A stretch of 64,000 nt of DNA from a virus. Positions 5,208-26,791 of the stretch are shown piece by piece (the first letter of the stretch is position 1; each line of letters opens with the position of its first letter). A program made the position numbers and the translations under genes. The notes below the pieces were generated by a model. The model saw only the letters and a list, made by a program, of their open reading frames with translations, was not told where the DNA came from and did no database searches. The stretch spans positions 64,001 to 128,000 of the IMG/VR virus record IMGVR_UViG_3300037231_000119, one strand, 5' to 3'.

Positions 5208-5780
5208 TTATCCAGGAAGCTTCGGTTTTGGTTGGGCCTTGATTCCTTCAAGACGTTCTTTATGGGCATCTTTGGAGCCTTCTTTTGCGATCATTTCGCC
5301 AATACCATCGCCAGATTTTCCGTAACCAACAGCGCGTTTTGCACGATCACCGGCAATAGGATTTAGAGGATCCTCGCCTTTATCCATTTCCTTAGCCTTA
5401 GACCCCTTTTTCATTTCCATTTTGCCCATAAATTTAGCCAGCTTATAAGAGCCCTTTTCATGATGCTTAGGATCTTGATTCGTAGCTTCATGCTGCTGAA
5501 CGTCTTGTTCAACCTTTTCACCAAGATCGGCATCGGCTTTAGCATCTGGGTTCTGTTCAGACATTCCCATTTTCTTCATAGGATCTTCAGATTTGCCCAT
5601 CTTAGCTTTAATGGCGCCGTCGATCTTATCAGCAGACTTTTCAGAATAGCCTTCTTTTTTGAGCTTAGAATGAATTTTAGCCCAATCGCCTTTAGCCAAC
5701 GTAGAGTTTTTATACATCTCTTCCGCTTTCTTCAAAACGGCGATGGCGGCTTCGGCTGGTGTAAATTTTTTATCAGACAT
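5208..5780 (-). CDS. Putative internal head protein with multiple K|S/A/G motifs
   Basis: LKKAE, LAKGD, MGKSE, MDKGE; late motif at 5801-5809 and SD GGAG. Confidence 0.65.
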   Translation of the reverse strand: MSDKKFTPAEAAIAVLKKAEEMYKNSTLAKGDWAKIHSKLKKEGYSEKSADKIDGAIKAKMGKSEDPMKKMGMSEQNPDAKADADLGEKVEQDVQQHEATNQDPKHHEKGSYKLAKFMGKMEMKKGSKAKEMDKGEDPLNPIAGDRAKRAVGYGKSGDGIGEMIAKEGSKDAHKERLEGIKAQPKPKLPG

Positions 5781-5800
5781 AGGTAGTCTCCATATAGGTC

Positions 5801-5809
5801 TAAGATTGG
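5801..5809 (-). promoter_or_regulatory. Putative late promoter CCAATCTTA
   Basis: Exact motif ~20 nt upstream of the ATG at 5780. Confidence 0.7.
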
Positions 5810-5816
5810 ATTAAAG

Positions 5817-6137
5817 CTATTTCTTAGCCCCTTGTTTCGATAAGAAGCTATGGAGCGCCTGTATACTCGGCTTCTTAAACTCTTGATTTTGTTCACTTTT
5901 ATAGAATTGGCTCGGTTTGTCAGTAGCTTGGCCTGGTTTTTTAGCCTTGGCGGTCTTTACGACTGCTTGAGCGCCAACCCTGGTAGGGCTAGCCGTATTG
6001 GACTGAGTGGGCGATATTACACCAGCTACAGGGGTCAGTTTTGTAGGGGTAAGTCCAGCCATAGCAGCTTTGGCCAGAACTTCAGTCTTTTGAAGGACTA
6101 GGATTGCAACTTGTTGAGGGGTAAAGATTTTGGCCAT
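5817..6137 (-). CDS. Putative internal head protein; N-terminus similar to 5208..5780
   Basis: FTPQQVAILVLQKTE vs FTPAEAAIAVLKKAE; FYKSE; motif variant CCAATCTTT at 6145-6153. Confidence 0.65.
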   Translation of the reverse strand: MAKIFTPQQVAILVLQKTEVLAKAAMAGLTPTKLTPVAGVISPTQSNTASPTRVGAQAVVKTAKAKKPGQATDKPSQFYKSEQNQEFKKPSIQALHSFLSKQGAKK

Positions 6138-6154
6138 ATAGGGTAAAGATTGGA

Positions 6155-7144
6155 CTAATCTTCGTCAGCGTAAGCCAGATCTTGAAGCGTGGACCAATTA
6201 ACGGTCGAGAGGTCTTCTTGGCTATCCGTGATATTGGACAGGATCTTTAGGCCGCCCGTAAACCCATCAGCATTGCCGAGAGATAAGTTCTCAATGTATC
6301 TATGTGGTTGTTCAATCCACCTTGATTCGGTTTGCAAGCTTAGATTTACGTCCCTGCTCCAGATCACTTGACCCGAATCACTATAATCTGGGTTCGGATA
6401 CATTCCTGTAGACTTAAGAACACTTTCAGTGCCTCCTCCCGCCTCCAAAAGTTTCTGTCTATATCTAAGTAGTACGTATACGGTTATGGTATGTAGCCAG
6501 AGTAGAGTCTGTTGGTCCATCGCATGGCAGGATATTTTATAATTCTCTTGCATGAAGGTATGGCCGACTCGAGCTTGATAGGTCTGGAAGTGGGGGATGA
6601 TTCCATAGAGTGCTGGAGTGAAAGTGAGGCCAGGAAGGAGATTAACTTGATTAGCAGTAGTAACTGACTGGATGACGAAACCTGTTCCAGTAGCCGGATC
6701 TACCAATACCATTTCGGGAGCAACAGCATTCAGGTTCACATCCGCATTGAACGAGAAGACACCAGTAACTGAATTATAGGTTCCTCCACTAATAGGTTTT
6801 AAAACAAAAGGGATCGGCTTATTGATGTCATTGGGGTAGAGTGTTACCTTTTCCGTACTTAGGTCGGCCATATGACGCATGTCCATTTTTTCGTCATTTG
6901 ATCCGAGTTCAACAACTATGGCGGGGAATTCAACCTTATCCTCCCTAAGAGACATAAGGATATTTATTCTGTTATTGGTAATCCATTGCTTACATGAGGA
7001 TATTTGACTCCCATAAAGCCTTCTCATGTACTCATTTGACACCGTATCGCCTAAAATATCGTCGATTAACCATAGATTTTTGGTTATATCCTCTAAACCC
7101 AATATTAATGCAGCTTTTACGCGAAGATCGCCAAGGTAGACCAT
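6155..7144 (-). CDS. Putative tail-completion/neck protein
   Basis: Position upstream of the sheath; FPAIVVEL and YKISCHA..LLWLHT..YVL pattern resembles tail-terminator-like proteins. Confidence 0.5.
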   Translation of the reverse strand: MVYLGDLRVKAALILGLEDITKNLWLIDDILGDTVSNEYMRRLYGSQISSCKQWITNNRINILMSLREDKVEFPAIVVELGSNDEKMDMRHMADLSTEKVTLYPNDINKPIPFVLKPISGGTYNSVTGVFSFNADVNLNAVAPEMVLVDPATGTGFVIQSVTTANQVNLLPGLTFTPALYGIIPHFQTYQARVGHTFMQENYKISCHAMDQQTLLWLHTITVYVLLRYRQKLLEAGGGTESVLKSTGMYPNPDYSDSGQVIWSRDVNLSLQTESRWIEQPHRYIENLSLGNADGFTGGLKILSNITDSQEDLSTVNWSTLQDLAYADED

Positions 7145-7148
7145 TTAC

Positions 7149-7964
7149 TTACCCCTTATATTTCTGCAAGATCGCTGGAAGGACACTATTATTCCATTCA
7201 TTTTGGGCCCACTCTGCGGCATCTGGGAAAAATCCCTTAGCGTTTTGAGCCGGATATTGCCACTTCCCATCATCGCCTTCTATGACAGTTCTGAAGGTAG
7301 TCATTACTTTCTTAGCGTTACCATTCTTATTCAAAACCTGATATATGTGGAGCCTTGCGAGTTGCTCGGTATTTCCACGCCCCGGTATCTTACTTGGAAT
7401 GTCAAAAACATGTAAGGGGAGAGGATGTCCATTAGGCCCCATTTTACTTATTCTCGGGCTCCCATTAGAATCCTTTTCAATTCCGCTCCACGAAAGCTTT
7501 TGACCTTTTAGAAAACCTTTGATACTTCCAATAAGCTCCTCATTCTTAGCAAGAGTCTTAATATTCAAACTGTCGGATTCTTTACCTTGTGGCATTGGAA
7601 TAATTTTGTAATGCTTGCCTTTATTAGGGCCATTCTTAACAGTCTCAGAATCTTTCAAGAGACCGTATTCTCCAGGCTTACCCTTCATATCCCACGGCTT
7701 ACCTTCTTCGATAGGAACTGCCGGTTCATTTAACGTGATCTCCCAAAGAAAGTCGCTGATTTGTACGGCTTGGCTTAGACTAGCTAGATATTTTTTTGCA
7801 ATCTGAGTATTTAGCTTTTGTCCCACCTCTTTTACCATGTTGGCGTGGGTAGCTTCCGCAAGCCCCTTAATACCTTTTTGAACATCCTTCGCGATTTCTT
7901 TTGCAAAGTTATTCAGGTATTGGGTTAAAGAGGAGATGTCTAGGTTGACTTTGATATCGCTCAT
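7149..7964 (-). CDS. Putative neck/head-tail protein
   Basis: IEEG..WDMK..LL, IIP, TFRTV..KWQYP pattern and synteny. Confidence 0.5.
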   Translation of the reverse strand: MSDIKVNLDISSLTQYLNNFAKEIAKDVQKGIKGLAEATHANMVKEVGQKLNTQIAKKYLASLSQAVQISDFLWEITLNEPAVPIEEGKPWDMKGKPGEYGLLKDSETVKNGPNKGKHYKIIPMPQGKESDSLNIKTLAKNEELIGSIKGFLKGQKLSWSGIEKDSNGSPRISKMGPNGHPLPLHVFDIPSKIPGRGNTEQLARLHIYQVLNKNGNAKKVMTTFRTVIEGDDGKWQYPAQNAKGFFPDAAEWAQNEWNNSVLPAILQKYKG

Positions 7965-9151
7965 AGAATACCCATCATCTTCAATTTAGGCTCATTCCAA
8001 AGCTCAGCATTAGGAAATTGTGTAAGAAACCAATCCCATTTAATTTGGGAATGAGGTCTCATATACCCCTTAATTTCGACCCAAGTATTAGGCTCTATAA
8101 GAAATAGATCTGGGCGATATGTCTTAGCTGTCCCAGATTTGGTAAAAAGGGGCGTCGTGAATGTTTGGGGTTGCCACAAAAAATCAATCTTTTTGGAATT
8201 AAGGTAATCCACTACTTTGGGTTCGTAACCGGCCTGACAAATAAGTTCCTCCCCAGTTTTCCAGTGTATTTTTAGGGTAGTATTTTGTAGTTTTTTAGCG
8301 TGCGTTAATGCATATGAGGGATCCTGAGATAGATGTTCTACCCCATACCTCTCCAGATTAGTTTTCCTTATCTTATCTAGTTTTCTTTTGGGATGACCTA
8401 TAAATTCCGCTCTAGGGAGTGACCAGAATTCACCGTGGTCCTTGTCAACGAAACGTGCCGTTTCATTCAGCCCCGTGTAGGTAGTTTCGTCTAAAATAAA
8501 TTCGTCCCCGAACTTCTTTAATTTTAATCTTACCTCCTCAATATTCAATTTCTTACCCTCATTTGCCCTATCGGGATGCCCATGGCCATCCATAACTCTA
8601 GCTGGGGTAGAAATCCATTCTCCGTAATCTACATCCATAAATGAACATTCGCTACGAACTTTCGTATGAGTAGAATCTATTATAGAGACAGTATTGCCAT
8701 GTTTCTCAAAAATGATTTTTTTGATATTTCTCAAGGGGGTTTTTGTTCTGTCATACCCTCTTTGAGGATGACCTCTCCCCCTCAAAACACCAATAACTGT
8801 CGCGGGCCATTCCCCATAGTCGCTATCCACAAAAATAGCCTTCTTGTTTACATTTACATAAGATGTTCGCACAATACGTACCGTATCACCATGTACGCCC
8901 TGAATGCGCTTCTCGATATCATCCACAGAAAGTCTTTTCCCGCTAAACGCATACCTTTTTCTCTTTGGATGGCCCTTGCCGTCCCTATAAAGCGCTGCCG
9001 GAATTGCAGTGAAATTACCAAAAGCCTCATCTATAAAGACAGCGGTAGTTTTTACGTCTACGTAGGAGGATTCTTCCATCCCAATAACGTATGGAAGTCT
9101 TCCCTGGACTCTTTCTAGAACTTCCTTACATGTAAGCTTTTTAATACCCAT
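7961..9151 (-). CDS. Homing-endonuclease-like protein: D..G.F/W...GHP repeats plus PD-(D/E)XK nuclease
   Basis: Four repeats ending GHP; TNLERYGVE motif; YRPDLF..WVEIKG; TTGACA at 9181-9186 upstream. Confidence 0.75.
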   Translation of the reverse strand: MGIKKLTCKEVLERVQGRLPYVIGMEESSYVDVKTTAVFIDEAFGNFTAIPAALYRDGKGHPKRKRYAFSGKRLSVDDIEKRIQGVHGDTVRIVRTSYVNVNKKAIFVDSDYGEWPATVIGVLRGRGHPQRGYDRTKTPLRNIKKIIFEKHGNTVSIIDSTHTKVRSECSFMDVDYGEWISTPARVMDGHGHPDRANEGKKLNIEEVRLKLKKFGDEFILDETTYTGLNETARFVDKDHGEFWSLPRAEFIGHPKRKLDKIRKTNLERYGVEHLSQDPSYALTHAKKLQNTTLKIHWKTGEELICQAGYEPKVVDYLNSKKIDFLWQPQTFTTPLFTKSGTAKTYRPDLFLIEPNTWVEIKGYMRPHSQIKWDWFLTQFPNAELWNEPKLKMMGIL

Positions 9152-9187
9152 ATACTTATAATTTCATATACTTGAATATGTGTCAAG

Positions 9188-9415: not shown

Positions 9416-11775
9416 TCACTCTGACCCTCCGCTTTCGGTCCATCTGGCGCACCGGATTGTGTAGCTTCCGCGACCGCACCCGGATCCTGAGGTGCATCTG
9501 AACTCATCTTAGGCTCGAGACCTAAGAGTTTGCACAGCTCGATCATGGCCTTAAGCATCTGGATCGTGCTTTGGTAAAGTCCGGGACTTTGATCTTTAGC
9601 CTCTTCTAGGAATGCCTTATTTGCCTTAAATCCCTGTAACGTTTGGGATACTTGATCTATAACCTGCGCCCTCTTTTGTTCCTGCGCGTGGTCATCTAAA
9701 CCACCCTGGAGAACTCCAGCCATATCTGGTTCATCCTGGCCATCTTCAGCCATCGGATCTTGTCCCGATTCTTGTCCCAATTCTCCATTTTGTCCCGATT
9801 CCTGAGCCATCTGATCCGCATCGCCCTGTGTACCTTGATAGTCTGGAGAGGCCATACGATCGATCGGACCTTCTTCTCCGCCTTGACTTCCAGGGCAATC
9901 TGGACAGTTACATTCATGGTCGCTATTCTGCATGTCCTTTTCAGCATCTGAAACGTTATTCTTTTGCTTATCGCCAAAGTTTTCGGGGACAGAGGCCCCC
10001 TCTTCCATCTCGTCGCCTTGAGGAAGTTCAGTATTGTCAATCTTTTTAGCTTCAGCCTCAGGAGTTTGGTCACCCTCTCCTGGCTTCTGATCCAATAGGT
10101 CTAAAACTTCTTCAGCCGTTTCATGTCCTTGTAGATTGGGATCTTCTTGGCCAGTTTGATCTGGCTGCTCTTCGATAGCGTCCCCATACATCTCTTGGCA
10201 CTGCGGACAGTTGTCTGGTTGCTCGGCAGACATATCTTGGACACCCAAAGCGGTCGCATCATGTTTTGGGCAATTCGGGCAGTTACAAATATGGTCTACG
10301 TCTTGTCCTTCGGGAGTCCCAGCTTGAGCTTCTCCAACGGTTTCGGATTCACAATAAGGGCAACCATCTACGCCGCCAGCCTCATCGGGAGTATCTTGGC
10401 AGTATGGGCAGTCATCCTCTTCCGAACTTTCCTGACAATATGGACAATCATCCGTATCTATCCCACCAGTATTTTGCTGGGAAGCATCGTATTCCTTACA
10501 AGCATCACAATCATGCATCCCAGCCGAACCATCCGCATTTTCTTGAGCATCCAAATCTTGGCAATAAGCACAGTCGTCCGTACGGTTATCTTCTTGATCA
10601 GGATTCTGAAAACCCTTGTCTTCTTTGTCGGCAGCTCCGTTATGGAAGCCCTCTTCATGCTTATGAAGATTATGGGTATGTTCAGACTTATACATCTCGG
10701 GCTTAGACATCCCCGCCTTGGAATCAGATCGTAGTTCTGATGCTGGATCGCTGTGTTGGTACGCAGCTCGACTATGTTGGTCAGCTATTTTAGAATGGAT
10801 ATCTCTATGTGCGGGATCCTTAGCTCTTTCTTTGCTACCGAACGCTCCTTGTTTTCCTTGATGAAAACGCCCCAGATCATTGTGAATTTTGGCCGCGTCG
10901 GCATGATCTTGCGGAGTGTATTTTAAAGTATTGGCAAACGCTTCAGATCGAAAATGAACCGGTTTCTTAGATTGGGTATGCCCCACAATATCGGAATCCT
11001 TGGGATGAACTGGTGCCGCATCCGAATCTGATTTATGAAGACCGCATGTATGTTCATACTTTACCATAGGCGCTGTAGTAGGTGCTGGGACTACGGTTAC
11101 CACGTGCCTCATTATGGCGCCATGTTTCTGATCTCTTTTATCCGCAGCACTATGTAAGCCCTTTTTACTTCCCACCGTTCCTTTATAGTGAAGAGTGCCG
11201 GTAGTGGGGCTATGAGAAGCTAAATGATATTTTTCGCCAGGCTTTAGATCTGGGGCGCCATAGAGACCGTGTTCACCTTCAGCTTTATGTAAATCGCACT
11301 TCATATTTTCGCTCTTTTCCAGATAAGCATCCGCAAGCTTCATCTCTTCTTGATTGGCAGTTTTAGCCTTAACTTTTTCGCGCATTTTATCAATGCCCTT
11401 TTCTACTTTAGGTCCATACCAAACCGTCTTATTCTTACCTGTAGCTTTGGCGTAGAGGAGACTTCTACCCGCTTCAGACAAGTCCTTACCAATACCAACT
11501 GAAATATTTAAGTCGGTGGCCTCGTAGTACTTACTTCTTAGCTCTTCCACATCTTTAGCGGCTTCAAACGGGATGCGAAAACTCCCCTCATCTCCACCAC
11601 CAGAAATTCTTTTACCACCACGCTCTGATACCCACTGATTAACGATCTCGTGACCCAAATCGATCTTGGCCGAGATATTGTGGAGAGCCTTCTCATCATT
11701 TGCAATGATGGCCTTACCGCACTGGCGACCAGCACCGTCCGCATCATAAGTAAGTCTGAGCATGGGCTTACTCAT
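9397..11775 (-). CDS. Putative head polyprotein: N-terminal mCpol (minimal CRISPR polymerase)-like domain, His-rich modules, acidic CxxC-repeat region
   Basis: YDADGAG...GGKRISGGGDEG...ISVGIG...A..SLLYAKATGKN; LEKSE, LHKAE, LHKSD, MYKSE; eight CxxC units. Confidence 0.7.
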   Translation of the reverse strand: MSKPMLRLTYDADGAGRQCGKAIIANDEKALHNISAKIDLGHEIVNQWVSERGGKRISGGGDEGSFRIPFEAAKDVEELRSKYYEATDLNISVGIGKDLSEAGRSLLYAKATGKNKTVWYGPKVEKGIDKMREKVKAKTANQEEMKLADAYLEKSENMKCDLHKAEGEHGLYGAPDLKPGEKYHLASHSPTTGTLHYKGTVGSKKGLHSAADKRDQKHGAIMRHVVTVVPAPTTAPMVKYEHTCGLHKSDSDAAPVHPKDSDIVGHTQSKKPVHFRSEAFANTLKYTPQDHADAAKIHNDLGRFHQGKQGAFGSKERAKDPAHRDIHSKIADQHSRAAYQHSDPASELRSDSKAGMSKPEMYKSEHTHNLHKHEEGFHNGAADKEDKGFQNPDQEDNRTDDCAYCQDLDAQENADGSAGMHDCDACKEYDASQQNTGGIDTDDCPYCQESSEEDDCPYCQDTPDEAGGVDGCPYCESETVGEAQAGTPEGQDVDHICNCPNCPKHDATALGVQDMSAEQPDNCPQCQEMYGDAIEEQPDQTGQEDPNLQGHETAEEVLDLLDQKPGEGDQTPEAEAKKIDNTELPQGDEMEEGASVPENFGDKQKNNVSDAEKDMQNSDHECNCPDCPGSQGGEEGPIDRMASPDYQGTQGDADQMAQESGQNGELGQESGQDPMAEDGQDEPDMAGVLQGGLDDHAQEQKRAQVIDQVSQTLQGFKANKAFLEEAKDQSPGLYQSTIQMLKAMIELCKLLGLEPKMSSDAPQDPGAVAEATQSGAPDGPKAEGQSDPKAVG

Positions 11776-12689
11776 TTACGCCCTCTCAATACTTCTAGCA
11801 ACATTTCGATATTAGATTCATCCCAGCCACGACTAAAACGGAGCTGTACGCCATCCTGAGATTTTTTAAGCCAAATCTTTCTATGCTGATCCTGACCGAA
11901 ACATAGACAGCCGCTGTAGCCCGCAGTCTCACCGAATATGGTTTGTCCGCAGTCATTACAGGAAATCATTTCCGATTTGGCCATTTCAACTTTGAACTCT
12001 CTTGGTTTCTTCTTCCGTTCCAAGAACCCTTTGAGGGGAGATCCCTTTTTAGGGGACTCTTCTTTTTTGGTAATGTCGGAAGGCTTAACTTCGAGTGGCT
12101 TCGTCGTAATAGGGGGAATTGCGACGGAAGGTGTCGCAATACTAGGAGCTTTCATAGCCTCATTCAACTTAGCCATCATTAACTTATGAATAGCTTCTCT
12201 CTGCGCCATCTTATCTTCAACCACCCTGTTAACCAAAGAGTGAAGTTCCATACGTTCATCGATCAGCTTCTGAACCTTACGATCAATATCCTCTTCAACC
12301 TTCTTAGGCTTCGAGAGATCTTCCATGTCATAAAGCTCAAATGTTGAGAGTAGGATTAACCCCAATCCAGGGATAGAACGATTTTTAAAATCATATACCA
12401 ACTTATTATTATCGTAAACAGAGCCAGTGAAGTTGTCTGCGGAGTTTTTGTTAGCACTAACGTAAGCATTGGTACCAAATGGTAAGTGGATATCCTTATG
12501 AGAGTTTAGTTCCATTGGTTCCAGCTCAGAGATCAACATGGACATGACCGCTCTTGGTACGACCTTAAGACCAATCATGATCTCCATCGGATCCAAAACG
12601 GAATTGGACCCAATTTTATAGAGATCTGCCGACTTAGCGAGAGTCTCCAAAAACTGGTCATCTAAGATGTTAAGGAGATCGTTTTTCAT
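11772..12689 (-). CDS. Putative head-associated protein with C-terminal Cys cluster
   Basis: LAKSA, MAKSE, LKKSQ; CNDC..CLC; 4-nt overlap with the next gene. Confidence 0.6.
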   Translation of the reverse strand: MKNDLLNILDDQFLETLAKSADLYKIGSNSVLDPMEIMIGLKVVPRAVMSMLISELEPMELNSHKDIHLPFGTNAYVSANKNSADNFTGSVYDNNKLVYDFKNRSIPGLGLILLSTFELYDMEDLSKPKKVEEDIDRKVQKLIDERMELHSLVNRVVEDKMAQREAIHKLMMAKLNEAMKAPSIATPSVAIPPITTKPLEVKPSDITKKEESPKKGSPLKGFLERKKKPREFKVEMAKSEMISCNDCGQTIFGETAGYSGCLCFGQDQHRKIWLKKSQDGVQLRFSRGWDESNIEMLLEVLRGRK

Positions 12690-12692
12690 AGA

Positions 12693-14172: not shown

Positions 14173-14521
14173 TTGACCGTCCTAAACATAGTTCGGATAG
14201 CTCCGATAGCCTATTATCAGTGTTGGAATGGAGTCTAGCCAAACCCTTAATCACCTCATTGATATTGAGCGCCTTCTTTATCTTTTCGACTCGTCTTTCG
14301 AATTTGAGACCATCGAGTCTATTATTTGGATTGACGTGAATATCACCACTAAAGCCCTGACCCATTACAGCCATGATCTCTATCTGTTTCAAAAACGAAG
14401 CGATCTTTGGATCAAGAGGGTCATAGTTAACTTGAATCTTAGTAGCCCCCTCGATCTGCCTTACTAATGGCTTATCGATATTAAACTCAATCTCTTCGTT
14501 TCCAATGATCTTAATGCACAT
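14165..14521 (-). CDS. Hypothetical protein
   Basis: 118 aa, overlapping both neighbours. Confidence 0.65.
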   Translation of the reverse strand: MCIKIIGNEEIEFNIDKPLVRQIEGATKIQVNYDPLDPKIASFLKQIEIMAVMGQGFSGDIHVNPNNRLDGLKFERRVEKIKKALNINEVIKGLARLHSNTDNRLSELSELCLGRSNE

Positions 14522-15015
14522 TACGAGATCCTAGCTTTCTTGAGACCTGAAGAGAGGGCTTTCTCGGAAACCGCACCACTCATAGCATGGACGAACTCTT
14601 TAGGGACTTCCAAAGACTGAAGGCAGAGAGAATTACCATGGATAGCGCCATTAGCAGATCCAACTTTGATATTCTGCTTGGTGATATAGAAATCGACATT
14701 TGCACCGTTTTGTACACTATATATGTCGTGACCAGACTTACGAAGATCATCTGAAAGAAAATGGGAATGACTCTCAGCTTGAAGCTTCAGACCTTCCGAT
14801 TTCATGATGGCTGGCTGGAAAGAATTATAGCGCTGTTCAATCGTATAGCATAGTATAGCCTGATGCGAAGCTGCTCCAAGAACCTCTTCCTCACCCTTAG
14901 CCCCAACTTTGGTTGCTAGGCAAAGCCCACCCTTCAATTTTATGAGGCTTACCTGCTTACCGTCCATAACTCCAAAAGGCTCTTTTGATGCAATCTGATC
15001 GTCTTCTATTTTCAT
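14521..15015 (-). CDS. Hypothetical head-associated protein (start revised to ATG 15015)
   Basis: MKIEDDQ start lies right after the upstream stop; IMKSE and LRKSG motifs. Confidence 0.6.
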   Translation of the reverse strand: MKIEDDQIASKEPFGVMDGKQVSLIKLKGGLCLATKVGAKGEEEVLGAASHQAILCYTIEQRYNSFQPAIMKSEGLKLQAESHSHFLSDDLRKSGHDIYSVQNGANVDFYITKQNIKVGSANGAIHGNSLCLQSLEVPKEFVHAMSGAVSEKALSSGLKKARIS

Positions 15016-15016: not shown

Positions 15017-16660
15017 TTATTTCTCTTTTCCGTAGGCTTCTCTGACTTTTGCAACGTGCCAGTGATTTTTGATATCCTGTTTATTTTTTAAAGCGCCTTT
15101 TGTTCCCTGAATTCCATTCAGCCACCCATAGGCTAAATTGTCTGGATTGTTACCCAATACATGCTCCATATGGGATAGGTGCCTATCAGCGATGGTGTTT
15201 TCGAGACCCTTATGGTCGTTCATATAATTATGAAGCTGTTGACCCTTAAGCGCTAAAGCCTTGCCATGTTTTGAGGCCAAATCTTTATGGCCTTTGATAG
15301 TCTCTCTAATAGTTTCTGGCATCAATCCATAGGCGCCATACGCATGCTCAGCCCCATGAATTGGTCCACCACCTGCGGCATGATTCGTGTTTTTTCCACC
15401 ACTCGACTCAACAGAGGCGATAGCCCTAAGCATCTTAGCGTGGTCATAGTTTGATTTAGGTTGGGCGTGTTGAATGCTGGCAGGAGACCGATTTCCAGCA
15501 TCTGTTTGAGGAGCAGATCCAGCTAAGGCGCCAGCCATACCAAGTGCAATACCGGCATTTTTGAGTGCGCCTTTTTCCAAAGACTCGCTTTTATCAAAAT
15601 CTGGATTGTTAAGTCTAGCTCTAGCCTCTGAAAGATAGTTCGGACTTCCAGGCTTAGATTTCATTTTATTCTTTATTGGAGCCATTCTTTCAGCTTCGAG
15701 ATGCTCTAATTGCTGTCCCGACTCTCTCTTTATATCTTTAGCATGGCTGATATTTTTTGATCTGGATTGTTGAGAAGCCATCACGGAATTAAGCTCATCA
15801 CCTGCATTACCGGCCTTCGCTTTATTGGGACTAAGAGCGGCTATGCCCATAAGAGCGCCAGCGGTTTTTTCTTTCCAGCCCTTGTGGAGTTCACATTCTC
15901 CCTTACTCACTTTCTCAGGCAACTTCTTTCCCTTGGTCGCCTCATCCCATTCATGGACACCAGCTTCACCACCTAGAGCTTTTTCTCCATTAGGGGTGTG
16001 CGCCCATCTCTCTTGTGCTAGACTTTCGTAAGGCTTGGCCAATGGCTTCTTACCGAGAACATTTTCAGCTTTAGTAACCGGCACATTCACCTTAGCCGTA
16101 AAATCCGAATGATCCGGAAACTTGGGTTCGGCAGTATCGGCTTCGTGATGGTAAGTTTTGATAGTTTTGGGGCCCTTATTGAGAACTGCATTTCCAAAAG
16201 ACAATCCGGCTTCATGGGCCGTTTTTGCACCGGAAGATTTAATTTTATCCCAAGTACCTTTATCAACACTCACATGCGGAGACCATTCAAATTTTGAAGG
16301 GTGGCCCATATGAGCAAACTTTCCATTGTGCTCCTTCATCTTATCGGCCGAGTTCCCCTTTAATTTGACGACAAATACGTCGTTCCCATTACGATCTTTA
16401 AACTGGGCAGGCTCTATTTGCGTATTTTTAGCATCAGGGGGATTTAGTGGGAGATGTTGGGCCAAATCATGAATGGAGTGAAGATGGTCCTTTTCTTTAT
16501 TGAATTCTTTCAGACTAGCGTGATATCCAATGTTATTATCGGGCCTGTGAGTTTGGCCGTTGATCTTTACGGGATAGCCAAGAAGGATTCCCTCTGAGGC
16601 TAGTTTCGCATAACCGGCAGGATCTTCTTTTTTGTGGAGGTTAGGCGCATTTTTTGACAT
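15017..16660 (-). CDS. Putative head polyprotein: Acb1-like 2H phosphodiesterase, small modules, two hydrophobic segments, lytic transglycosylase (SLT-like)
   Basis: YHASL and PHVSV 82 aa apart; AIASVESSGG..AYGAYGLMPET..AYGWLNG; VTKAE, VSKGE, LHKGW, FDKSE, LEKGA. Confidence 0.75.
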   Translation of the reverse strand: MSKNAPNLHKKEDPAGYAKLASEGILLGYPVKINGQTHRPDNNIGYHASLKEFNKEKDHLHSIHDLAQHLPLNPPDAKNTQIEPAQFKDRNGNDVFVVKLKGNSADKMKEHNGKFAHMGHPSKFEWSPHVSVDKGTWDKIKSSGAKTAHEAGLSFGNAVLNKGPKTIKTYHHEADTAEPKFPDHSDFTAKVNVPVTKAENVLGKKPLAKPYESLAQERWAHTPNGEKALGGEAGVHEWDEATKGKKLPEKVSKGECELHKGWKEKTAGALMGIAALSPNKAKAGNAGDELNSVMASQQSRSKNISHAKDIKRESGQQLEHLEAERMAPIKNKMKSKPGSPNYLSEARARLNNPDFDKSESLEKGALKNAGIALGMAGALAGSAPQTDAGNRSPASIQHAQPKSNYDHAKMLRAIASVESSGGKNTNHAAGGGPIHGAEHAYGAYGLMPETIRETIKGHKDLASKHGKALALKGQQLHNYMNDHKGLENTIADRHLSHMEHVLGNNPDNLAYGWLNGIQGTKGALKNKQDIKNHWHVAKVREAYGKEK

Positions 16661-17648
16661 CTGCCCCTCCTAAGAAATCTAGGCAACGTTGAATGCAGGA
16701 TTGTTTATCTAAATCCCAGTCCACCTCTTTGATATGGAGGATTTTAATGTCCTTAGTCGCAAAATGAGCATCCTTAAGGTCGTGGTAATTATAGACGTCT
16801 TCGTCTGGCCAATGTTTACGCGACCTTTTTAGGCCCTTAAAGGAATGATGATAGGTGCCATCAAATTCTATGCCAAGTTTTAGCTCTGGAACGTAGATAT
16901 CTATATCAAAACGTTTAATATGAGGTTTCCCCTCTATGCTAACTTTAGAACGTAACGTATTAGCGGTAGGAAAAAACGCTTTGACGTTATCCGAAAGCTC
17001 TTTCTCTTTAAGGGAAATGCTTCTTGATTTTTTCATATGTGAACATACAATATCCAGTATACCCAAATTTCTCGCTGCATCCCAGGCACCCGCCCCATAT
17101 TTTTTAAATTCCCCACGACTATTGTATTTTAGAGCCTCTTGATGGATCTTTTCTACCGTATCCCATTTGACTTCCCACAGGGGGGTCATATGAACACAAA
17201 AATCTTCTATTATTCCCTGCCTGTGCATCGCGCTATAAACACCCGGATGTAAATCTCTAAGTTGCTCTTTACTATTGCAAGTAAGTGCTATGCGCTTAAG
17301 ATCTTCTAGGGAATAAGCCTCATTGCACTTTTCGCCCATAAAGGCGCAAATATCGTCAAGCCACCCCATTCTTTGAGCTTTGTCGTAAGCTCCTGCACTG
17401 CCCCTAGCAAAAGAAGTTCTATCGGCATAATTATATGCTTCTTTTTGTACTTCCTCAAAAGTCTCCCATTTAGGTTCCCATAAGACTTCCATATGGGAGC
17501 AAATCCTGTCTAAAAATTCGGGACCTTTTCGCCAAGCTGCCTTATAAGCCGCATTACTATATTTTTGAAAATCAATACGGCTAAGATATTTGAGAGCTTC
17601 CGCCCTCAATTCTTCTGGTGTCCATCTGTGCCGTTTTTTAACGCTCAT
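16641..17648 (-). CDS. Homing-endonuclease-like protein: helical repeats plus Vsr-like nuclease
   Basis: W..E...EALKY.SR..F....AY..A...LD.ICSHM repeats; FDIDIYVPELKLGIEFDGTYHH; upstream TTGTAA-N17-TAGTAT. Confidence 0.75.
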   Translation of the reverse strand: MSVKKRHRWTPEELRAEALKYLSRIDFQKYSNAAYKAAWRKGPEFLDRICSHMEVLWEPKWETFEEVQKEAYNYADRTSFARGSAGAYDKAQRMGWLDDICAFMGEKCNEAYSLEDLKRIALTCNSKEQLRDLHPGVYSAMHRQGIIEDFCVHMTPLWEVKWDTVEKIHQEALKYNSRGEFKKYGAGAWDAARNLGILDIVCSHMKKSRSISLKEKELSDNVKAFFPTANTLRSKVSIEGKPHIKRFDIDIYVPELKLGIEFDGTYHHSFKGLKRSRKHWPDEDVYNYHDLKDAHFATKDIKILHIKEVDWDLDKQSCIQRCLDFLGGADVKKCA

Positions 17649-20499: not shown

Positions 20500-21006
20500 C
20501 TATCTGTTGCTTTTTCTCATCTCAATTAGAAGATTCGTTATAGCTATCATTTCAATATAAGATATGGAATTATTTTTAATTAGATTGCATGTGGAACAAC
20601 AAGGAACCACATTGTCAGCATAGTAGTCTTTACTGTTATCTTTTCTGTCTAGGCCGTGCCCTGTTTCTGGGAGTCTTCCCTTGCAGTAATGGCAGGAGTC
20701 ATCTTCCACTATGGAAATCCATTCATCCAAAGTAATGTGCCAGCTATAGCCCCTATCTTTGGCAGCTATTATACCTCTTTTGAATCTACTTTTGTTCTTT
20801 CTAGCATGCCCATACGATTTTGCTCGTCTTTCATCTCTATTCGCTAAGTAGTATTTTTTAGATTGAGCGTTCAATTCTTCCCTATTAGAGTTGTTGCGCT
20901 CTATCGTACATTTTTGACAATAAGTCTGAACACCGTCTTTTCGGGCCTTATTTTTTTGGAAATCCCCGATATCTTTTTCTAAATTGCATCCTTTACAGAT
21001 TTTCAT
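20500..21006 (-). CDS. HNH homing endonuclease
   Basis: KICKGC..F..YC..C; CHYC..GLDRKDNSKDY..NVVPCCSTCN; upstream TTGACT-N16-TAATCT. Confidence 0.8.
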   Translation of the reverse strand: MKICKGCNLEKDIGDFQKNKARKDGVQTYCQKCTIERNNSNREELNAQSKKYYLANRDERRAKSYGHARKNKSRFKRGIIAAKDRGYSWHITLDEWISIVEDDSCHYCKGRLPETGHGLDRKDNSKDYYADNVVPCCSTCNLIKNNSISYIEMIAITNLLIEMRKSNR

Positions 21007-21121: not shown

Positions 21122-22525
21122 TTAGGTAAACAATTGTCCTTGCAAATTCTCGACGATTGCATTTTTCCGTGGCGCCTCTACTGCGAGCGTAGTCCACCTG
21201 TAAAAAGCATTGTTAATGCTCAATTGAGAGATACCGAGCTGAAGCTTTTTAAAGCCACTCAGTTCGCCCATGTGTCCCGTATCCTTCTGAATCAGGAAAC
21301 CCGTGAGAGCGCCAGGAGCCATGTTGCCAAGGTCCGTGAACGTCGCACCACTTGGGGCCGCCGCGATATTCCCGATGAAGAGAACACCCGGAGAAACCGT
21401 AGCTGCCACACCGGCCGCCGTACGATACACACGGTAGTAGAGAGCGCCAGCAGCCGCACCGATCGTCAGAGTGACCTTGTTACCAGCGAGAGCAGGCGTA
21501 ACGGTCGAAACGGCCGAGAGAGGCCCTTCACCGTAGGCGTTAACCGCAGCAACAGCGTACGTATACGCAGCAGCCTGAAGGAGAGACCCAGCGGCCCCGC
21601 CGTCAGCAGAAGCCAACGTAGGCTGAGCAGGAGCGCCCTGAATCTGGACGTTGATCGGATTGATCTGTTTACGCAAATATTGCGACATTTCCATACTGAC
21701 GGCACCTGAGCTAGTCCACTGCGTGCGAAGATGCGCGCCAGTAGCTTCCTGAGGTGAACCAGCGAGAACGATACGTTCCTTAGCCTGGCTGATCTTGTTA
21801 TAAGCAGAGAGGCTGGAAGGATCCAACATCAGCTTGTCCGCGCGACCCATGTTAAGGGCAGAACGAACCGAGATATCTTCGATCAGGGACTGCGTAAGAG
21901 CAGCGCCACCAGCCGAGAACACAACCGTTGCGCTCGAACCGTACGAAGCGAACATCAGATCCTGTCCATTGCGCTCGAAATCCGAGGCGCGAACCTGGAG
22001 ATCCCAACCACGCATATTGGCGAGAGCAGGAACTAGGGCAGGATTGCCATCGAAGACTCCGTTGTTTGAGAAATCAGAGTTACCAGAGAACAGGTCGAAC
22101 TCGATGTCCTGAGCAAGGTTAAGGGCCGCATCCTGAGCTTGGCGCTCTTCAGCAGTCACCTTGTCAAACGTTTCAACAGCGTTCGCAACGAGCGAATGTT
22201 CGCGTGTATCGACGTAGTACGCCATTGGGACCACGAGACGAGCAGCTTGGCCAGTCTTTTTCGCGCCCAGCATACCTTCGTAAGCCGCTGATCCGCCGAA
22301 ACGGCCGACAGACAATTTACGATTGTACTGATAGAGATTCGACTTCGTATTACGAACATCGAGCATCTTCTGCAGTTTGATGGTCTCTTCGGCAGCCGTG
22401 ACATTGATCATCACTGGAGCCAGATCTTCGATTTGATAAGCAGCGCCCTGTACGAGGGTAGAAGGGGCGGCATTATATGAACCCGCTTCGAGTGCCTTCA
22501 TCAGAGTTTGGAGTTGGTCTAACAT
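21122..22525 (-). CDS. Major capsid protein (SPO1/Twort-like type, FN3-like insertion)
   Basis: KALEAG..GAAYQIEDL N-terminus; IEFDLFSG; YTYAVAAVNAYGEG..YYRVYR; follows the scaffold; strong terminator. Confidence 0.9.
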   Translation of the reverse strand: MLDQLQTLMKALEAGSYNAAPSTLVQGAAYQIEDLAPVMINVTAAEETIKLQKMLDVRNTKSNLYQYNRKLSVGRFGGSAAYEGMLGAKKTGQAARLVVPMAYYVDTREHSLVANAVETFDKVTAEERQAQDAALNLAQDIEFDLFSGNSDFSNNGVFDGNPALVPALANMRGWDLQVRASDFERNGQDLMFASYGSSATVVFSAGGAALTQSLIEDISVRSALNMGRADKLMLDPSSLSAYNKISQAKERIVLAGSPQEATGAHLRTQWTSSGAVSMEMSQYLRKQINPINVQIQGAPAQPTLASADGGAAGSLLQAAAYTYAVAAVNAYGEGPLSAVSTVTPALAGNKVTLTIGAAAGALYYRVYRTAAGVAATVSPGVLFIGNIAAAPSGATFTDLGNMAPGALTGFLIQKDTGHMGELSGFKKLQLGISQLSINNAFYRWTTLAVEAPRKNAIVENLQGQLFT

Positions 22526-22556: not shown

Positions 22557-23462
22557 CTACTTAAGTAGATGGCGGACAGATTCGACATTTTTACTAAAAT
22601 AGTAACTGTTAATGGCATCACGATCGGACTTAGTCAGAGAAACATCTTTTGCTTTAGCCAGAAGCTTCGCATCGATTTCACTCTTAGTAAGAGGTTTTTC
22701 GTTTTGGCCGCTTTCGGTCTTAGCGATGATATCCAGGGATGTAATCGCTTTACCGGCAGGAGCAGTTTTCTCAACGAATTTTTTCAGGAAGGCAGCAACA
22801 GCGGCAGTCTCAGCCTTAGCAGCTTCGAGTTCCGACTTAAGCATGCTAATTTCCATAGAAGGTTCTGATTTTTCGAGAGCTTGAGCACCGGTAGAAGCGG
22901 GACCTTTGCCTTCTTTTTCAGATTGACCGTCTTTAGGGCCACCGTTAGGACGGTAACCTTCAGCATCTTTAGCGCAATCTTCCATCTCAGCTTTAGCCAT
23001 GCCATCTTCGCATTTAGCCATGCCCATGCCTTCTAGGCACTTTCTCACAGCGTCATGATGAGCCTTCAGTTCAGGCTTAGACATCGAAGAGTACATCGAG
23101 TGCATGTGACCCATATCTTCGTCGTCGTAACCATGATCTTCATCGGCAGGCGCAGCACCATCTTTGGCCGCCATACCTGGCTGTTCTTGATCGTTTTCGC
23201 CTGGCTTATCTTCAGATTGCTGATCTTGATCCTTGACGCCCTTATCTTCGGGCTTTTCGGTTTCCATCGGCTTCTTTTCTTCGCCACTTGATTCGCTAGA
23301 AGCCTTCTTCTCGTCCTCTTTCTTAGATTCATCCTTTTTGGGAGGAAACTCGGATTTGGCGAGACCAAAACTTTTTTCAGCTTTGGCAAGATGCTTCGAA
23401 AATTCTTTTTCCACATCGGCCATCAGGCTTGAAAGTTGTTGTTCGTCGTACATGATTTTCAT
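22557..23462 (-). CDS. Capsid scaffolding protein
   Basis: Charged low-complexity protein directly upstream of MCP, with about nine (L/M/I)xK(S/A/C/T)(E/D) motifs. Confidence 0.75.
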   Translation of the reverse strand: MKIMYDEQQLSSLMADVEKEFSKHLAKAEKSFGLAKSEFPPKKDESKKEDEKKASSESSGEEKKPMETEKPEDKGVKDQDQQSEDKPGENDQEQPGMAAKDGAAPADEDHGYDDEDMGHMHSMYSSMSKPELKAHHDAVRKCLEGMGMAKCEDGMAKAEMEDCAKDAEGYRPNGGPKDGQSEKEGKGPASTGAQALEKSEPSMEISMLKSELEAAKAETAAVAAFLKKFVEKTAPAGKAITSLDIIAKTESGQNEKPLTKSEIDAKLLAKAKDVSLTKSDRDAINSYYFSKNVESVRHLLK

Positions 23463-23497
23463 AATCAGATCCTCTATGTTTGATAGCTATCCGATTC

Positions 23498-24388: not shown

Positions 24389-24398
24389 CCAATCTTAT
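24389..24398 (+). promoter_or_regulatory. Putative late promoter CCAATCTTAT (probable leaderless HNH transcript)
   Basis: Motif 4 nt before the ATG at 24403. Confidence 0.65.
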
Positions 24399-24402
24399 TA
24401 GT

Positions 24403-24903
24403 ATGAAAACATGCACAAATCCGATATGCGATCAAATAAACCCCCAACCCTTAACGCAATTTTATAAAAAGAAGAGTGGGAGAGATGGACTAAATGGTAG
24501 GTGTGTAAAGTGTACCAATAAGCAAACAGATGCTTGGTGTGCCCGTAATACCGAAAAGGTGAAGGTTACCAAAAACAAATGGACGACCAACAATACAGAA
24601 AAAGTTAGGGAAAATGGCCAAAAATGGGATAAATTAAATCCAGGTAAAAAAGCCGCTCAAGTTCGTAAGTATCAGGCTTCTAAGCTTAATGCGACTCCCA
24701 AATGGCTTACTAAAGAACAACTTAAGGAAATGCAGGCCCTATATGTTGAAGCGGCCCTAAAAACCAGAGAAACTGGAATCCCCCATGAAGTCGATCATGA
24801 GGAGCCCCTACAGGGTAAGAATATCTGCGGATTGCACGTACCATGGAATCTGAAGGTGGTTACGAGGACCGAAAACCGTAAAAAGAGCAATACGGGTAAA
24901 TAG
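24403..24903 (+). CDS. HNH homing endonuclease
   Basis: ATPKW..Y..HEVDHEEPLQGKNICGLHVPWNL..EN..KSN. Confidence 0.85.
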   Translation: MKTCTNPICDQINPQPLTQFYKKKSGRDGLNGRCVKCTNKQTDAWCARNTEKVKVTKNKWTTNNTEKVRENGQKWDKLNPGKKAAQVRKYQASKLNATPKWLTKEQLKEMQALYVEAALKTRETGIPHEVDHEEPLQGKNICGLHVPWNLKVVTRTENRKKSNTGK

Positions 24904-24904
24904 T

Positions 24905-24914
24905 CCAATCTTAT
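24905..24914 (+). promoter_or_regulatory. Putative late promoter CCAATCTTAT
   Basis: Motif then SD AGGAG upstream of the protease ATG. Confidence 0.7.
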
Positions 24915-24931
24915 CCCTTAGGAGTGCTTAA

Positions 24932-26791
24932 ATGTCAACTTATATTTCGGGCGTAGCTAGTTGTTCCGCAATTGATACCGCTGGGGAAATTGTAGATATT
25001 AGCGGTCTCGACATAACCTCCTTAGCTCGTAGCGGTACTTGTAACTGGGAACACAAAGCCGACACCCCGGCACAAACAGTTGGCAAAATACTAAAGGCAA
25101 AAAAGATCTTTAGTGAAAAAGACTGTGAAGATTCCAATCAAAAACACTTTTGGGATAAAACCAAACTACCGTTCGTATATATAGTTGCGGAGCTTTTGGA
25201 TGATTATACGGCTAGTGCAAAAGAATGTGCTGGTCAGATGAGGTACAGTAAGGACCATCCCGAACTATCGGCAATTTTAGGATTTTCCGTTGAAGGAAGT
25301 GAAATACCCGGAACCAGGAAAAATTCCATGCTGATCACACGATCGATTGCAAGAAAGGTTACGCTTACCGTATCTCCAGCAAATAAGTTATGTATTGCTC
25401 AAATTTTCGAGAACCCAGAACAAAAATCCCAAGTCAAAGATGATTTTGAAGAATTGTTTCGTTCTGACCAAGAAGCTATCACTCTCTTCAAGTCAGGTGA
25501 AGGCGAAAAGATTTACGAATCCTATTTGGCCAAAAAAGAGCATGAGCCTAAGAAGCCGTGTAAACATAAGAAAATGAAAAAAGATGAATTTGGTTATCCA
25601 GATTCCCCTAAAACTTCAGCGCCCCCTCCAGAACCAAATAAAGCAAACGCCCAAGCTATGCAAAATGGCGCTGAATCAGGCGGTCCAAGTTTCTCTCAGG
25701 GCCTATCTAACCTGGCCAATGGCTTAATGGGTAAAAGTGAAAACTTCGGATGGTCTAAGGGTAAAGTGGATAAGGATAAAAAGGCAGTTCACTACGAACA
25801 CCCAACTCATGGCACGGTTTCCGTAATCAGACACGATAATGGCGATTTCCACGTAAAGCATCGTGGGGCTTTGGCTGGTGTTGGTGGAGTTAAGGGCTCT
25901 TTCCCTACTTCTGGAGAAGCCGGTACTCACGCTAAGAAATATATGTCTTCCTTAAGCCAGGGTAAAACTTTGGCACCACAAATGCATAATATTTCATCAA
26001 CGGACGTTGCGAGCAAAAAACATCTTAAAAAAGCCATCGATGCCGGTTCCTACAATGCCGCCCCCTCTACCCTAGCTTCCGGTGCCGCTTATCAACGCGA
26101 AAGTCTTGGTTCAAAGCCTGCAACTACTGGGGCTGAAGACCATAACTTTCAGGGGACTAAGAAGAAGGACTGGAATAAGAGATCGAAAGAAGATTACGAG
26201 AATTGGCCCCAAAAAGAGAAGTTTGAGAAGTTTATGTCTGCTAGAATGCCTCATTTGGCATTAGGCGAGATAAAAGCTCTGGGCCGGGCGATATGCTTGA
26301 AAAAGAACATCGAGGCGGAGAAAGCTCTTGGTAATTTGGTTTTGGGTAAGTCTGAAGAGGACCCCAAACTCGGCAATCATTTTCTTTTCAGTGCTGAAAA
26401 TCCAATGCATCCCCATAAAAATGAAAGCAGGATGGACCATAAACAGACCCTGGTACACTTAAAAAGTAAGGGTTTTGATGCCAATGAAGTTAAGGGGCAT
26501 TATGGCGCTCCGGAGACCTCGATCATGGTCCACAATGTTAATCCCAAACAGGCAGAGCATCTTCACGGAATAGCCTCCAAACTTGGTCAGGATAGTTCGA
26601 TCTATAGTAATAATGGCAAGCATGAGATGCGCTACCATCACGGTGAAAAGGCAGGAAAGTCCCATTTAGGTTCTGGTACCGAATTCCATAAAGAAAAGCC
26701 TAAGGATTTCTATACTACTCTACCTAATGGAAAACACTTCACTCACAATTTTGATTTTGATCAATTACATAATAGTAAAAAGAAAAAATAG
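24932..26791 (+). CDS. Prohead protease polyprotein: HK97/U35-like protease, internal copy of the MCP N-terminus, C-terminal SAM lyase-like domain
   Basis: ISGVAS..IDTAGEIV..G.D..NWEH..GFSVEG..VTLT.SPAN; KAIDAGSYNAAPSTL; FSAENP..GHYG..ETS..GQDS. Confidence 0.85.
   Translation: MSTYISGVASCSAIDTAGEIVDISGLDITSLARSGTCNWEHKADTPAQTVGKILKAKKIFSEKDCEDSNQKHFWDKTKLPFVYIVAELLDDYTASAKECAGQMRYSKDHPELSAILGFSVEGSEIPGTRKNSMLITRSIARKVTLTVSPANKLCIAQIFENPEQKSQVKDDFEELFRSDQEAITLFKSGEGEKIYESYLAKKEHEPKKPCKHKKMKKDEFGYPDSPKTSAPPPEPNKANAQAMQNGAESGGPSFSQGLSNLANGLMGKSENFGWSKGKVDKDKKAVHYEHPTHGTVSVIRHDNGDFHVKHRGALAGVGGVKGSFPTSGEAGTHAKKYMSSLSQGKTLAPQMHNISSTDVASKKHLKKAIDAGSYNAAPSTLASGAAYQRESLGSKPATTGAEDHNFQGTKKKDWNKRSKEDYENWPQKEKFEKFMSARMPHLALGEIKALGRAICLKKNIEAEKALGNLVLGKSEEDPKLGNHFLFSAENPMHPHKNESRMDHKQTLVHLKSKGFDANEVKGHYGAPETSIMVHNVNPKQAEHLHGIASKLGQDSSIYSNNGKHEMRYHHGEKAGKSHLGSGTEFHKEKPKDFYTTLPNGKHFTHNFDFDQLHNSKKKK

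Follow-up and report, generated by a model that had tools for sequence, protein, structure and literature searches.

Predicted protease-jointed polyprotein cargo among the head proteins of an uncultured, Mx1-related myovirus

In phage T4, the internal proteins Ip1-3 and Alt are addressed to the prohead, where the prohead protease gp21 trims them; they remain in the head and enter the host with the DNA. Type IV restriction is blocked by Ip1-3, whereas Alt has an enzymatic activity (PMC12373910, PMC9026906). Here we describe a set of head-region proteins that might be handled in a comparable way, encoded by the IMG/VR virus record IMGVR_UViG_3300037231_000119 (162,446 bp, rated as complete by CheckV). 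The stretch analysed, called the window hereafter, comprises 64,000 nucleotides (bases 64001-128000 of the record), and the genes in question lie at window positions 5208-26791, the head-to-neck part of the late module. Judged by its proteins, the source is the head module of an uncultured ~162-kb myovirus related to Myxococcus phage Mx1. A preliminary description of the window had proposed that this phage loads polyproteins into the prohead, cleaves them after Lys at a recurrent short motif and injects the released enzymes. The principle of such a system is already known, and the concept is an instance of the cargo processing of T4 and phiKZ and of the so-called polyvalent proteins. We consider it reasonably probable that polyproteins jointed by protease sites are loaded into the prohead of this phage, cut there and delivered with the DNA.

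The likeness to T4 consists in a short motif with a hydrophobic residue at P3 at the boundary of the predicted cargo. In contrast, the T4 protease belongs to family S77 and cuts after Glu, its substrates are single proteins with an N-terminal leader, and the enzymes carried are others. In phiKZ and SPN3US, many head proteins are cut at one motif, propeptides are cut several times and the protease also cuts itself (PMC10052503, PMC7411985). One motif across many head proteins and a preference for Ser at P1' are common to these phages and the window, whereas their motif ends in Glu, their cuts mostly remove N-terminal propeptides instead of separating enzyme modules, and they are jumbo phages with an inner body. 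HK97 shares the protease fold, the F-N-K↓S maturation cut (the arrow marks a known or predicted cut bond) and further hydrophobic-x-K-S/A motifs in the delta domain, but it processes only its capsid protein and the protease itself and no cargo, whereas the window encodes the scaffold as a protein of its own along with many predicted substrates, and its sites additionally favour Glu/Asp at P2'. The Dar proteins of P1 are anti-restriction proteins that are built into the head during morphogenesis and then injected (PMC12810830, PMC9024508), but they have no domain in common with the present proteins in a Pfam and PHROG comparison, and no linker code.

Polyvalent proteins, as described by Iyer et al. 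(2017), unite unrelated enzyme domains in one late or virion-linked polypeptide, for which injection and proteolytic release were predicted; that survey lists 2H, GGDEF-type cyclase, ART, NUDIX, GNAT, muralytic and assemblin-like peptidase domains, and in the part of it considered here no modules with mCpol (minimal CRISPR polymerase) or S-adenosylmethionine (SAM) lyase fold are reported (PMC5512222). The same kind of union is seen in the window, where 2H and SLT domains occur in one open reading frame (ORF), a protease is joined to a SAM-lyase fold and mCpol to other modules, and the homologue in Mx1 carries an ART-PolyVal domain. However, the survey attributes release mostly to zincin peptidases built into the proteins and places the assemblin-like peptidase at the C-terminus (PMC5512222), whereas here one N-terminal S78 protease and a linker code would serve the whole gene set. 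The enzyme modules resemble the SAM lyase of T3 (gp0.3) and Acb1 in fold (SAM lyase and 2H, respectively) and the mCpol of Panoptes in family (PMC12657218, PMC12657230). SAM lyase and Acb1 are expressed early from the phage genome and the Panoptes mCpol is a host-encoded guard, in contrast to the enzymes of the window, which are late-gene modules behind predicted protease sites. New are an HK97-type protease with a predicted Lys-type site serving a whole gene set, the protease itself as a putative modular carrier of cargo, and mCpol and SAM-lyase-fold modules as candidate cargo.

Motif enrichment in the head-to-neck region

The motif searched for was [LMFVI]xK[SAG][ED], i.e. hydrophobic-x-Lys-(Ser/Ala/Gly)-(Glu/Asp). 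In the unselected set of all 23 ORFs of positions 5208-26791 (6,925 residues) it was found 24 times, compared to 15 times in the 43,458 residues encoded outside this region, which corresponds to a rate ratio of 10 without any preselection (Fisher p 6e-12). This agrees with the idea put forward in the preliminary description that the motif is concentrated in head proteins, and all pentapeptides quoted there were recovered at the ORFs named, as was GFSVEG in the protease. The narrower form [LMFVI]xKSE occurred 14 times in the eight ORFs named, against 0.47 expected from shuffles within each protein, and 4 times in the remaining 47,346 residues of the genome, where 3.9 were expected. All 14 KSE tripeptides of these eight ORFs have a hydrophobic residue at -2 from Lys, and KSE was the most enriched of all tripeptides in the region (14 versus 11, p 8.6e-7). 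The five most motif-enriched proteins of the whole genome lie within the region. The scaffold-like protein contains 7 sites with 0.44 expected (p 4e-7) and the 5208 protein 4 sites with 0.35 expected (p 5e-4). Of the occurrences of hydrophobic-x-Lys-(Ser/Ala/Gly), 24 of 40 are followed by Glu or Asp within the carriers, compared to 15 of 159 outside them. Two proteins that had also been counted as carriers could not be retained, namely the portal, with one site versus 0.32 expected, and the 32164 ORF, which has no site with Glu/Asp; both were dropped from the set with site numbers not above chance.

An 8-kb part of the window had no match at the DNA level in the phage collection (megablast), and Mx1 was the only relative at the protein level found in it, with 34% identity in the N-domain of the protease. 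Seven closer relatives are present in IMG/VR (87-94% identity to the major capsid protein, MCP, of the window). For comparison we used two IMG/VR relatives, G001 (complete, 166 kb) and G002 (114 kb), and the genome of Mx1 (L001). The orthologues in G001 and G002 are 40-70% identical to the proteins of the window, yet the same set of proteins carries the motif, for the most part at positions that align, and the neck, tail and nuclease genes nearby had no motif in this comparison. The scaffold sites are aligned in all three genomes and read LAKAE, LAKSE (twice) and LKKSD in Mx1, where the motif is also found in head-module proteins of 1479 and 619 residues and in several smaller proteins. The 14521 ORF as called starts with MQKSE (residue 1), which was discarded because it stems from an extension of the ORF call to a TTG codon; the alignment with the orthologue in G001 begins at residue 14, and the true start is probably Met14 of the called ORF.

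Among metagenomic proteins, 186 homologues of the protease were detected (E <= 0.001), and the best 120 of them (373-967 residues) contained 302 sites versus 55.7 expected, often 60-200 residues apart. Chance or a composition artefact is a practically negligible explanation. Several carriers are not significant individually, but the region-wide Fisher test, the excess in these homologues and the positions kept at 40-60% identity and in Mx1 speak against it, and an explanation by composition only was rejected on the basis of the shuffles and the unselected excess in the region.

The putative prohead protease and its predicted cut bond

According to structure comparison, the capsid maturation protease is of the HK97 gp4 type (S78, assemblin fold). 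Its residues 1-182 reached a TM score of 0.76 to S78 clusters carrying PF04586 in a search of Atlas structures; a direct Pfam match of the catalytic domain was not obtained. In 79 homologues, H41, S119, E121 and G122 are invariant or nearly so (S119 invariant, H41 nearly), and the GFSV of the window protease aligns, weakly (E 0.45), with the GFSV of HK97 gp4. The polyprotein is composed of the S78 domain, autoprocessing sites, a variable module, a mimic of the MCP N-arm, a conserved C-terminal region, a site and the SAM-lyase-like module, in this order, and is encoded on the strand opposite to the MCP and scaffold genes. Behind the catalytic domain, the 79 homologues share the consensus IFKSE...LFKS, in which F175 is invariant and K176 nearly invariant. 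The first of these sites has Arg in place of Lys in the window (LFRSD), a change that would fit a basic residue at P1.

HK97 gp5, when translated, has F-N-K immediately before its known mature N-terminus (Ser104), and its delta domain contains the further hydrophobic-x-K-S/A motifs IQKAI, LTKSG and LIKSW. Because of these matches, the motif of the window is by analogy an HK97-type site with an additional acidic preference at P2', and the protease most likely cuts after Lys, between hydrophobic-x-Lys and Ser/Ala/Gly-Glu/Asp. In this register the hydrophobic residue falls on P3 and Ser on P1', which is also the arrangement found in assemblin, T4 gp21 and SPN3US gp245. At the position of LGK↓SE, the protease of G001 stops, and that of G002 reads FNKSE followed only by a short tail. 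That the motif is a site of the protease appears highly probable to us. From the claim of a prohead-protease site cut after Lys, the comparative part stands (conservation up to Mx1, position at module junctions, S78 fold and F-N-K↓S of HK97), and the cleavage itself is extrapolated from it.

In an alternative register the cut would follow the Glu or Asp of the motif, with the model otherwise as proposed. The proteases of T4 (gp21), phiKZ and SPN3US do cut after Glu (PMC10052503), and the strong preference for an acidic residue two positions after Lys would suit such a cut. We nevertheless regard it as improbable, since only the Lys register yields the P3 and P1' residues named above, the sites of the MCP (LMK↓ALEAG) and of its copy in the protease (LKK↓AIDAG) read K-A-x-E/D and lack an acid at +2, one autoprocessing site has Arg for Lys, and HK97 with the same protease fold cuts at F-N-K↓S. 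Even less credible is a docking or linker element that is not cleaved at all, such as one that repeatedly contacts the inside of the capsid, or a helix-capping box within linkers of high Lys and Glu content. The carriers do contain much Lys, Glu, Ser and Ala, and a helical, coiled-coil-like structure is predicted for the scaffold regions around some sites, but shuffles that keep the composition give 0.47 instead of the 14 sites observed, every KSE of the carriers has its hydrophobic residue at -2, and the motif, which matches the cut site of HK97, occurs at the N-terminus of the MCP and directly after the catalytic domain in the protease.

The copy of the MCP N-arm within the protease is kept in G001, G002, Mx1 and the 79 homologues, with K481 and A482 nearly invariant, and may act as a mimic of the capsid lattice that recruits protease and cargo. 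Both copies follow the pattern K↓A-x-x-AGSYNAAPSTL..GAAYQ.E.L (26018-26107, plus strand, and 22420-22504, minus strand), and a hydrophobic-x-K↓A site precedes the copy as it does at the N-terminus of the MCP itself.

Module joints and enzyme folds

In two AlphaFold models, all three sites covered lie in linkers with a pLDDT <50 that flank domains with a pLDDT >90, and indels between relatives start or end at sites, in line with the earlier proposal that the motif marks domain boundaries. An exchange of cassettes between sites, for which a comparison of related genomes had been suggested, was likewise seen: whole modules are gained or lost at sites among relatives, namely the SAM-lyase module, mCpol, the middle module of the 15017 ORF and an insert of ~95 residues after MGK↓SE in the protease, which is present in G002 and absent from G001. 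Most site carriers and inter-site fragments had no family in PHROG and Pfam scans. When the 79 protease homologues were scanned with Pfam, FlgM was found in 2 and GNAT and SAM lyase in 1 each; with so few inserts named, most of the cargo borne by the protease appears to lie outside the known families.

The 9397 polyprotein begins with the mCpol module, which is followed by LEK↓SE and LHK↓AE, two small modules ending at LHK↓SD and MYK↓SE, an acidic CxxC-rich region and a conserved C-terminal domain. The assignment of the first module as an mCpol-like cyclase was confirmed by a PF18182 score of 42.8 bits (gathering score 26.4, E 7.7e-11, residues 9-119) and by the acidic motifs of the palm domain, which are kept as YDADG and GGGDE in the window and as VDGDG and GGGDE in G002. 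The module, which ends at LEK↓SE, is present in G002 and weak in Mx1. The CxxC-rich region (9856-10578, minus strand) is very acidic, contains about ten CxxC pairs in DDCPYCQ-type repeats and varies in length among relatives; no family was found for it, and the well conserved domain behind it comprises ~110 residues. A mini-module with the pattern (T/K)-x-S-(G/K)-K-x-V..S/F...(D/E)H..AA..H, at 10684-11028 (minus strand) in the 9397 ORF, is found within the protease polyprotein in G001 and G002 and has thus moved between different carriers.

The 15017 polyprotein consists of a leader with LHK↓KE, a 2H phosphoesterase module, VTK↓AE, a middle module that is absent from G002, FDK↓SE, a hydrophobic segment and an SLT domain. 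The identification of a 2H phosphodiesterase, made previously from the letters, holds at the level of the fold: the top Foldseek matches consist almost entirely of 2H enzymes (probability up to 1.0, TM 0.40-0.47), including the penguinpox cGAMP phosphodiesterase, a Burkholderia phage phosphodiesterase, Usb1, rotavirus VP3, LigT and, ranked lower (rank 27), Acb1, and both motifs, H47 (HxS/T) as well as H129 and S131 (HxS), are invariant in 16 homologues. A Pfam match or a useful match to PDB sequences was not obtained in single-sequence and profile searches, and a literature search gave nothing of use on the BCSR5 phosphodiesterase. The N-terminal leader, which ends in hydrophobic-x-K-(A/K/D)-E, is conserved among homologues of the 2H module. 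For the lytic transglycosylase the assignment also holds at fold level, with a goose-lysozyme-like SLT fold in which Glu-Ser is kept; V-E-S, L-M-P and W..G are invariant in an alignment of three sequences (window, G001 and G002). The score for PF01464 (15.6 bits) is below the cut-off of 21.3, and no PDB profile match was found for this module.

The model of the SAM-lyase-like module at the C-terminus of the protease resembles T3 SAM lyase (8bb1 and 7ock) with Z scores of 11.2 and 10.3 over 121-123 of 147 residues, the next unrelated structure having a Z of 6.1, and Foldseek gives a probability of 1.0 to T3 SAM lyase. The Pfam score for PF23780 is barely over the cut-off (28.6 bits versus 28). 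With a Z of 11, the fold part of the previous assignment stands. The module is present in 15 of the best 120 protease homologues and is directly preceded by a canonical site in 12/15 and by a near-variant in 2/15; where another module follows, there is a further K-S-E after it. In a more distant relative of 165 kb, a stand-alone SAM-lyase-like gene (153 aa) lies in the head-neck module, between the MCP gene and an mCpol-bearing gene (gene table).

The cultured relative Mx1 has further modules of this kind. Its protein of 1479 residues (L001 24404-28843) consists of GNAT, ART-PolyVal and NUDIX domains with K-S/A-E sites between them, and other site-bearing head-module proteins have PI3/4-kinase-like, mCpol-like and SAM-lyase/DUF3293-like domains. 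The record annotates these proteins in part only: the 1479-residue polyprotein is named 'NUDIX hydrolase', and the annotation is also partial for the 559-residue protein just before the tail sheath (L001 37603-39282), which contains a SAM-lyase/DUF3293-like domain.

Possible delivery and genomic surroundings

We hypothesize here that MCP, scaffold, portal and protease together build the prohead, and that cargo would enter as part of the co-assembling proteins. The carriers would be the protease, by means of its mimic of the N-arm and the conserved region at its C-terminus, and the other polyproteins, by means of their likewise conserved C-terminal domains; HK97 gp4 is targeted by its C-terminus. 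After activation, the protease would free itself right behind its own catalytic domain, dice the scaffold at seven sites, trim about ten residues from the N-terminus of the MCP and cut the polyproteins into modules of 10-20 kDa. Small peptides would exit the shell, and folded modules, too large to do so, would remain alongside the DNA until the following infection, when they would be expelled. The set delivered in this way would comprise the mCpol cyclase, the 2H phosphoesterase, the SLT module with its hydrophobic segment, the SAM-lyase-fold domain and several modules of no assigned function. The SLT module might aid passage through the wall, and the nucleotide- and SAM-directed modules might act on host signalling or restriction before phage gene expression. 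Encapsidation, ejection and the substrates of the enzymes are inferred; that the enzyme modules are delivered as virion cargo is a view to which we incline slightly, and counter-defence as the role of this cargo is possible, but more doubtful than delivery as such.

The sites might be real and serve head assembly only, with enzyme modules that are not delivered, either because they are late enzymes of the cytoplasm or because they are lost after cutting. The strongest enrichment, in the scaffold with its 7 sites, is what classical scaffold dicing would produce, propeptides normally leave the head (PMC10052503), and mCpol is dispensable in G001. On the other hand, prohead proteases work inside the shell, so that a cut implies encapsidation, and folded domains of 15-20 kDa cannot exit like small peptides. 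Sites moreover bound the modules at either end, and it is precisely at these points that cassettes are swapped. The SLT module and the ART-PolyVal domain of Mx1 are typical of delivered proteins (PMC5512222). We consider a role restricted to assembly unlikely.

Several observations nevertheless weigh against delivered, protease-released cargo. Cleavage and the exact scissile bond are deduced by analogy. On this phage and on Mx1, the literature searched offered neither proteomics nor structures nor expression data, and it gave nothing of use on the genome or virion of Mx1. Taken individually, the MCP, protease and 11772 ORFs are not significantly enriched for the motif; they were kept in the set because of conservation and position. 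Homology breakpoints in the protease homologues (BLAST) lie within <=5 residues of a site in 10.0% of cases versus 5.6% for random positions, a modest, 1.8-fold excess obtained from sequences that are not independent. The mCpol module is absent from the whole of the complete relative G001 and is therefore dispensable; since the 2H module is nevertheless present there, the pairing of the two is not obligatory, and the role of mCpol may not be tied to that of 2H. A cyclic nucleotide as substrate of the 2H module is a guess, the superfamily also containing enzymes that process RNA ends. For the SAM-lyase-like module, the link to the T3 enzyme by sequence profile did not materialize: hhalign of its alignment against T3 gp0.3 gave no profile similarity, and single-sequence and profile searches gave no match to any PDB sequence. 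The model supports the fold, and SAM-lyase activity is a possibility.

According to the Panoptes papers, host mCpol makes the decoy 2'3'-c-di-AMP, and Acb1 as a 2H enzyme can trigger the guard by degrading this decoy; the passages searched make no mention of a phage mCpol (PMC12657218, PMC12657230). A phage with both a 2H enzyme and mCpol is suggestive in this respect. One could imagine that the 2H module erases alarm nucleotides of the host while the phage mCpol resupplies the Panoptes decoy, so that immune signals would be destroyed without tripping the guard, and that the SAM-lyase-fold module disarms SAM-dependent restriction or BREX within seconds. We give this scenario little chance; if true, it would be the first anti-Panoptes mechanism and the first example of a virion loaded beforehand with second-messenger enzymes.

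Provided that the sites are cut, a code of five residues would show from sequence where dozens of orphan modules begin and end and that they are packaged. This would hold across a large and almost uncultured phage clade, in which the best 120 of the 186 protease homologues already look like strings of modules, ~370-970 aa long. The cargo principle of T4 and phiKZ would then extend to HK97-type proteases that cut after Lys, with the protease as carrier, and would point to enzymes acting before phage transcription, i.e. mCpol, 2H and the SAM-lyase fold as well as the GNAT, ART, NUDIX and kinase domains of Mx1. Given that Mx1 is cultured, these predictions are open to test. Cuts after Lys mimic tryptic ends and would thus be overlooked by standard virion proteomics.

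The coordinates of all features are listed in Table 1.

Table 1. Features of the head module and its surroundings (window positions; aa, amino acid residues; AF2, AlphaFold2)
Feature	Position	Strand	Evidence or remark
Tail sheath	2127-4877		
Lys/Glu/Ala-rich head protein, 190 aa, 4 sites, FTP leader	5208-5780	-	G001 orthologue keeps 3 sites
Small paralogous protein, 106 aa	5817-6137	-	FTP leader ending LQK↓TE, plus FYK↓SE site
Polyprotein, 792 aa	9397-11775	-	
mCpol cyclase module, aa 1-151	11323-11775	-	Pfam PF18182
305-aa protein, MAK↓SE before Cys-rich C-terminal module	11772-12689	-	IAKSE in G001 and G002
~164-aa protein, IMK↓SE site	14521-15015	-	LMKSE in G001 orthologue
Polyprotein, 547 aa	15017-16660	-	
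SLT lytic transglycosylase fold module, aa 400-547	15020-15463	-	Atlas structure TM 0.60-0.64 to SLT clusters
Gly/Ala-rich hydrophobic segment before SLT module	15509-15571	-	
2H phosphoesterase module, aa 10-178	16127-16633	-	AF2 pLDDT 83
Major capsid protein (MCP)	21122-22525	-	PHROG 752; 46.7% identity to Mx1 MCP
Predicted end of short MCP N-terminal propeptide, LMK↓ALEAG	22490-22504	-	K-A kept in G001, G002, Mx1
Scaffold-like protein, 301 aa, 7 sites	22557-23462	-	Just upstream of MCP gene
Putative prohead protease polyprotein, 619 aa	24932-26791	+	PHROG 1028 head maturation protease; Mx1 protease homologue
Predicted HK97 gp4-type (Peptidase S78) catalytic domain, aa 1-182	24932-25477	+	His in NWEHK, Ser in GFSVEG
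Predicted autoprocessing sites LFRSD (aa 175), LFKSG (aa 185)	25454-25498	+	End of catalytic domain
MGK↓SE site before ~95-aa module (aa 270-362)	25727-25741	+	Alignment with relatives
Copy of MCP N-arm inside protease, LKK↓AIDAGSYNAAPSTL...	26018-26107	+	Second match of MCP query in genome
LGK↓SE site, junction with C-terminal candidate cargo module	26342-26356	+	Low-pLDDT linker
SAM-lyase-like module, aa 476-619 of protease	26357-26788	+	PF23780; AF2 pLDDT 85.8
Portal	33778-35604		
Large terminase with big insertion	36441-39554	-	
GroEL-like chaperonin, adjoins terminase	40180-41958	-	PHROG 5725, E 5e-80

The 5208 and 5817 proteins have a common leader, FTP-x(3-8)-[VIL]L-x-K-x-E, which ends in a site; in this genome the exact pattern is limited to these two proteins, and it resembles a T4-style capsid-targeting leader. 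Outside the region, an ORF of 255 residues (30684-31451, minus strand), ~2.3 kb from the portal gene, shows a weak likeness to the C-terminal part of portal proteins (PHROG 2662, E 5e-4) and is conserved in G002. The large terminase comprises 1037 residues in the window and 622 in G002; its residues ~86-500 are an insertion with helicase- and endonuclease-like PHROG matches, possibly an intein or a homing element. Genes of HNH/endonuclease VII-type homing endonucleases are unusually many between the structural genes (392-1486, 7961-9151, 16641-17648, 20500-21006, 24403-24903 and 32772-33929); several of them are paralogous, and their positions vary among relatives.

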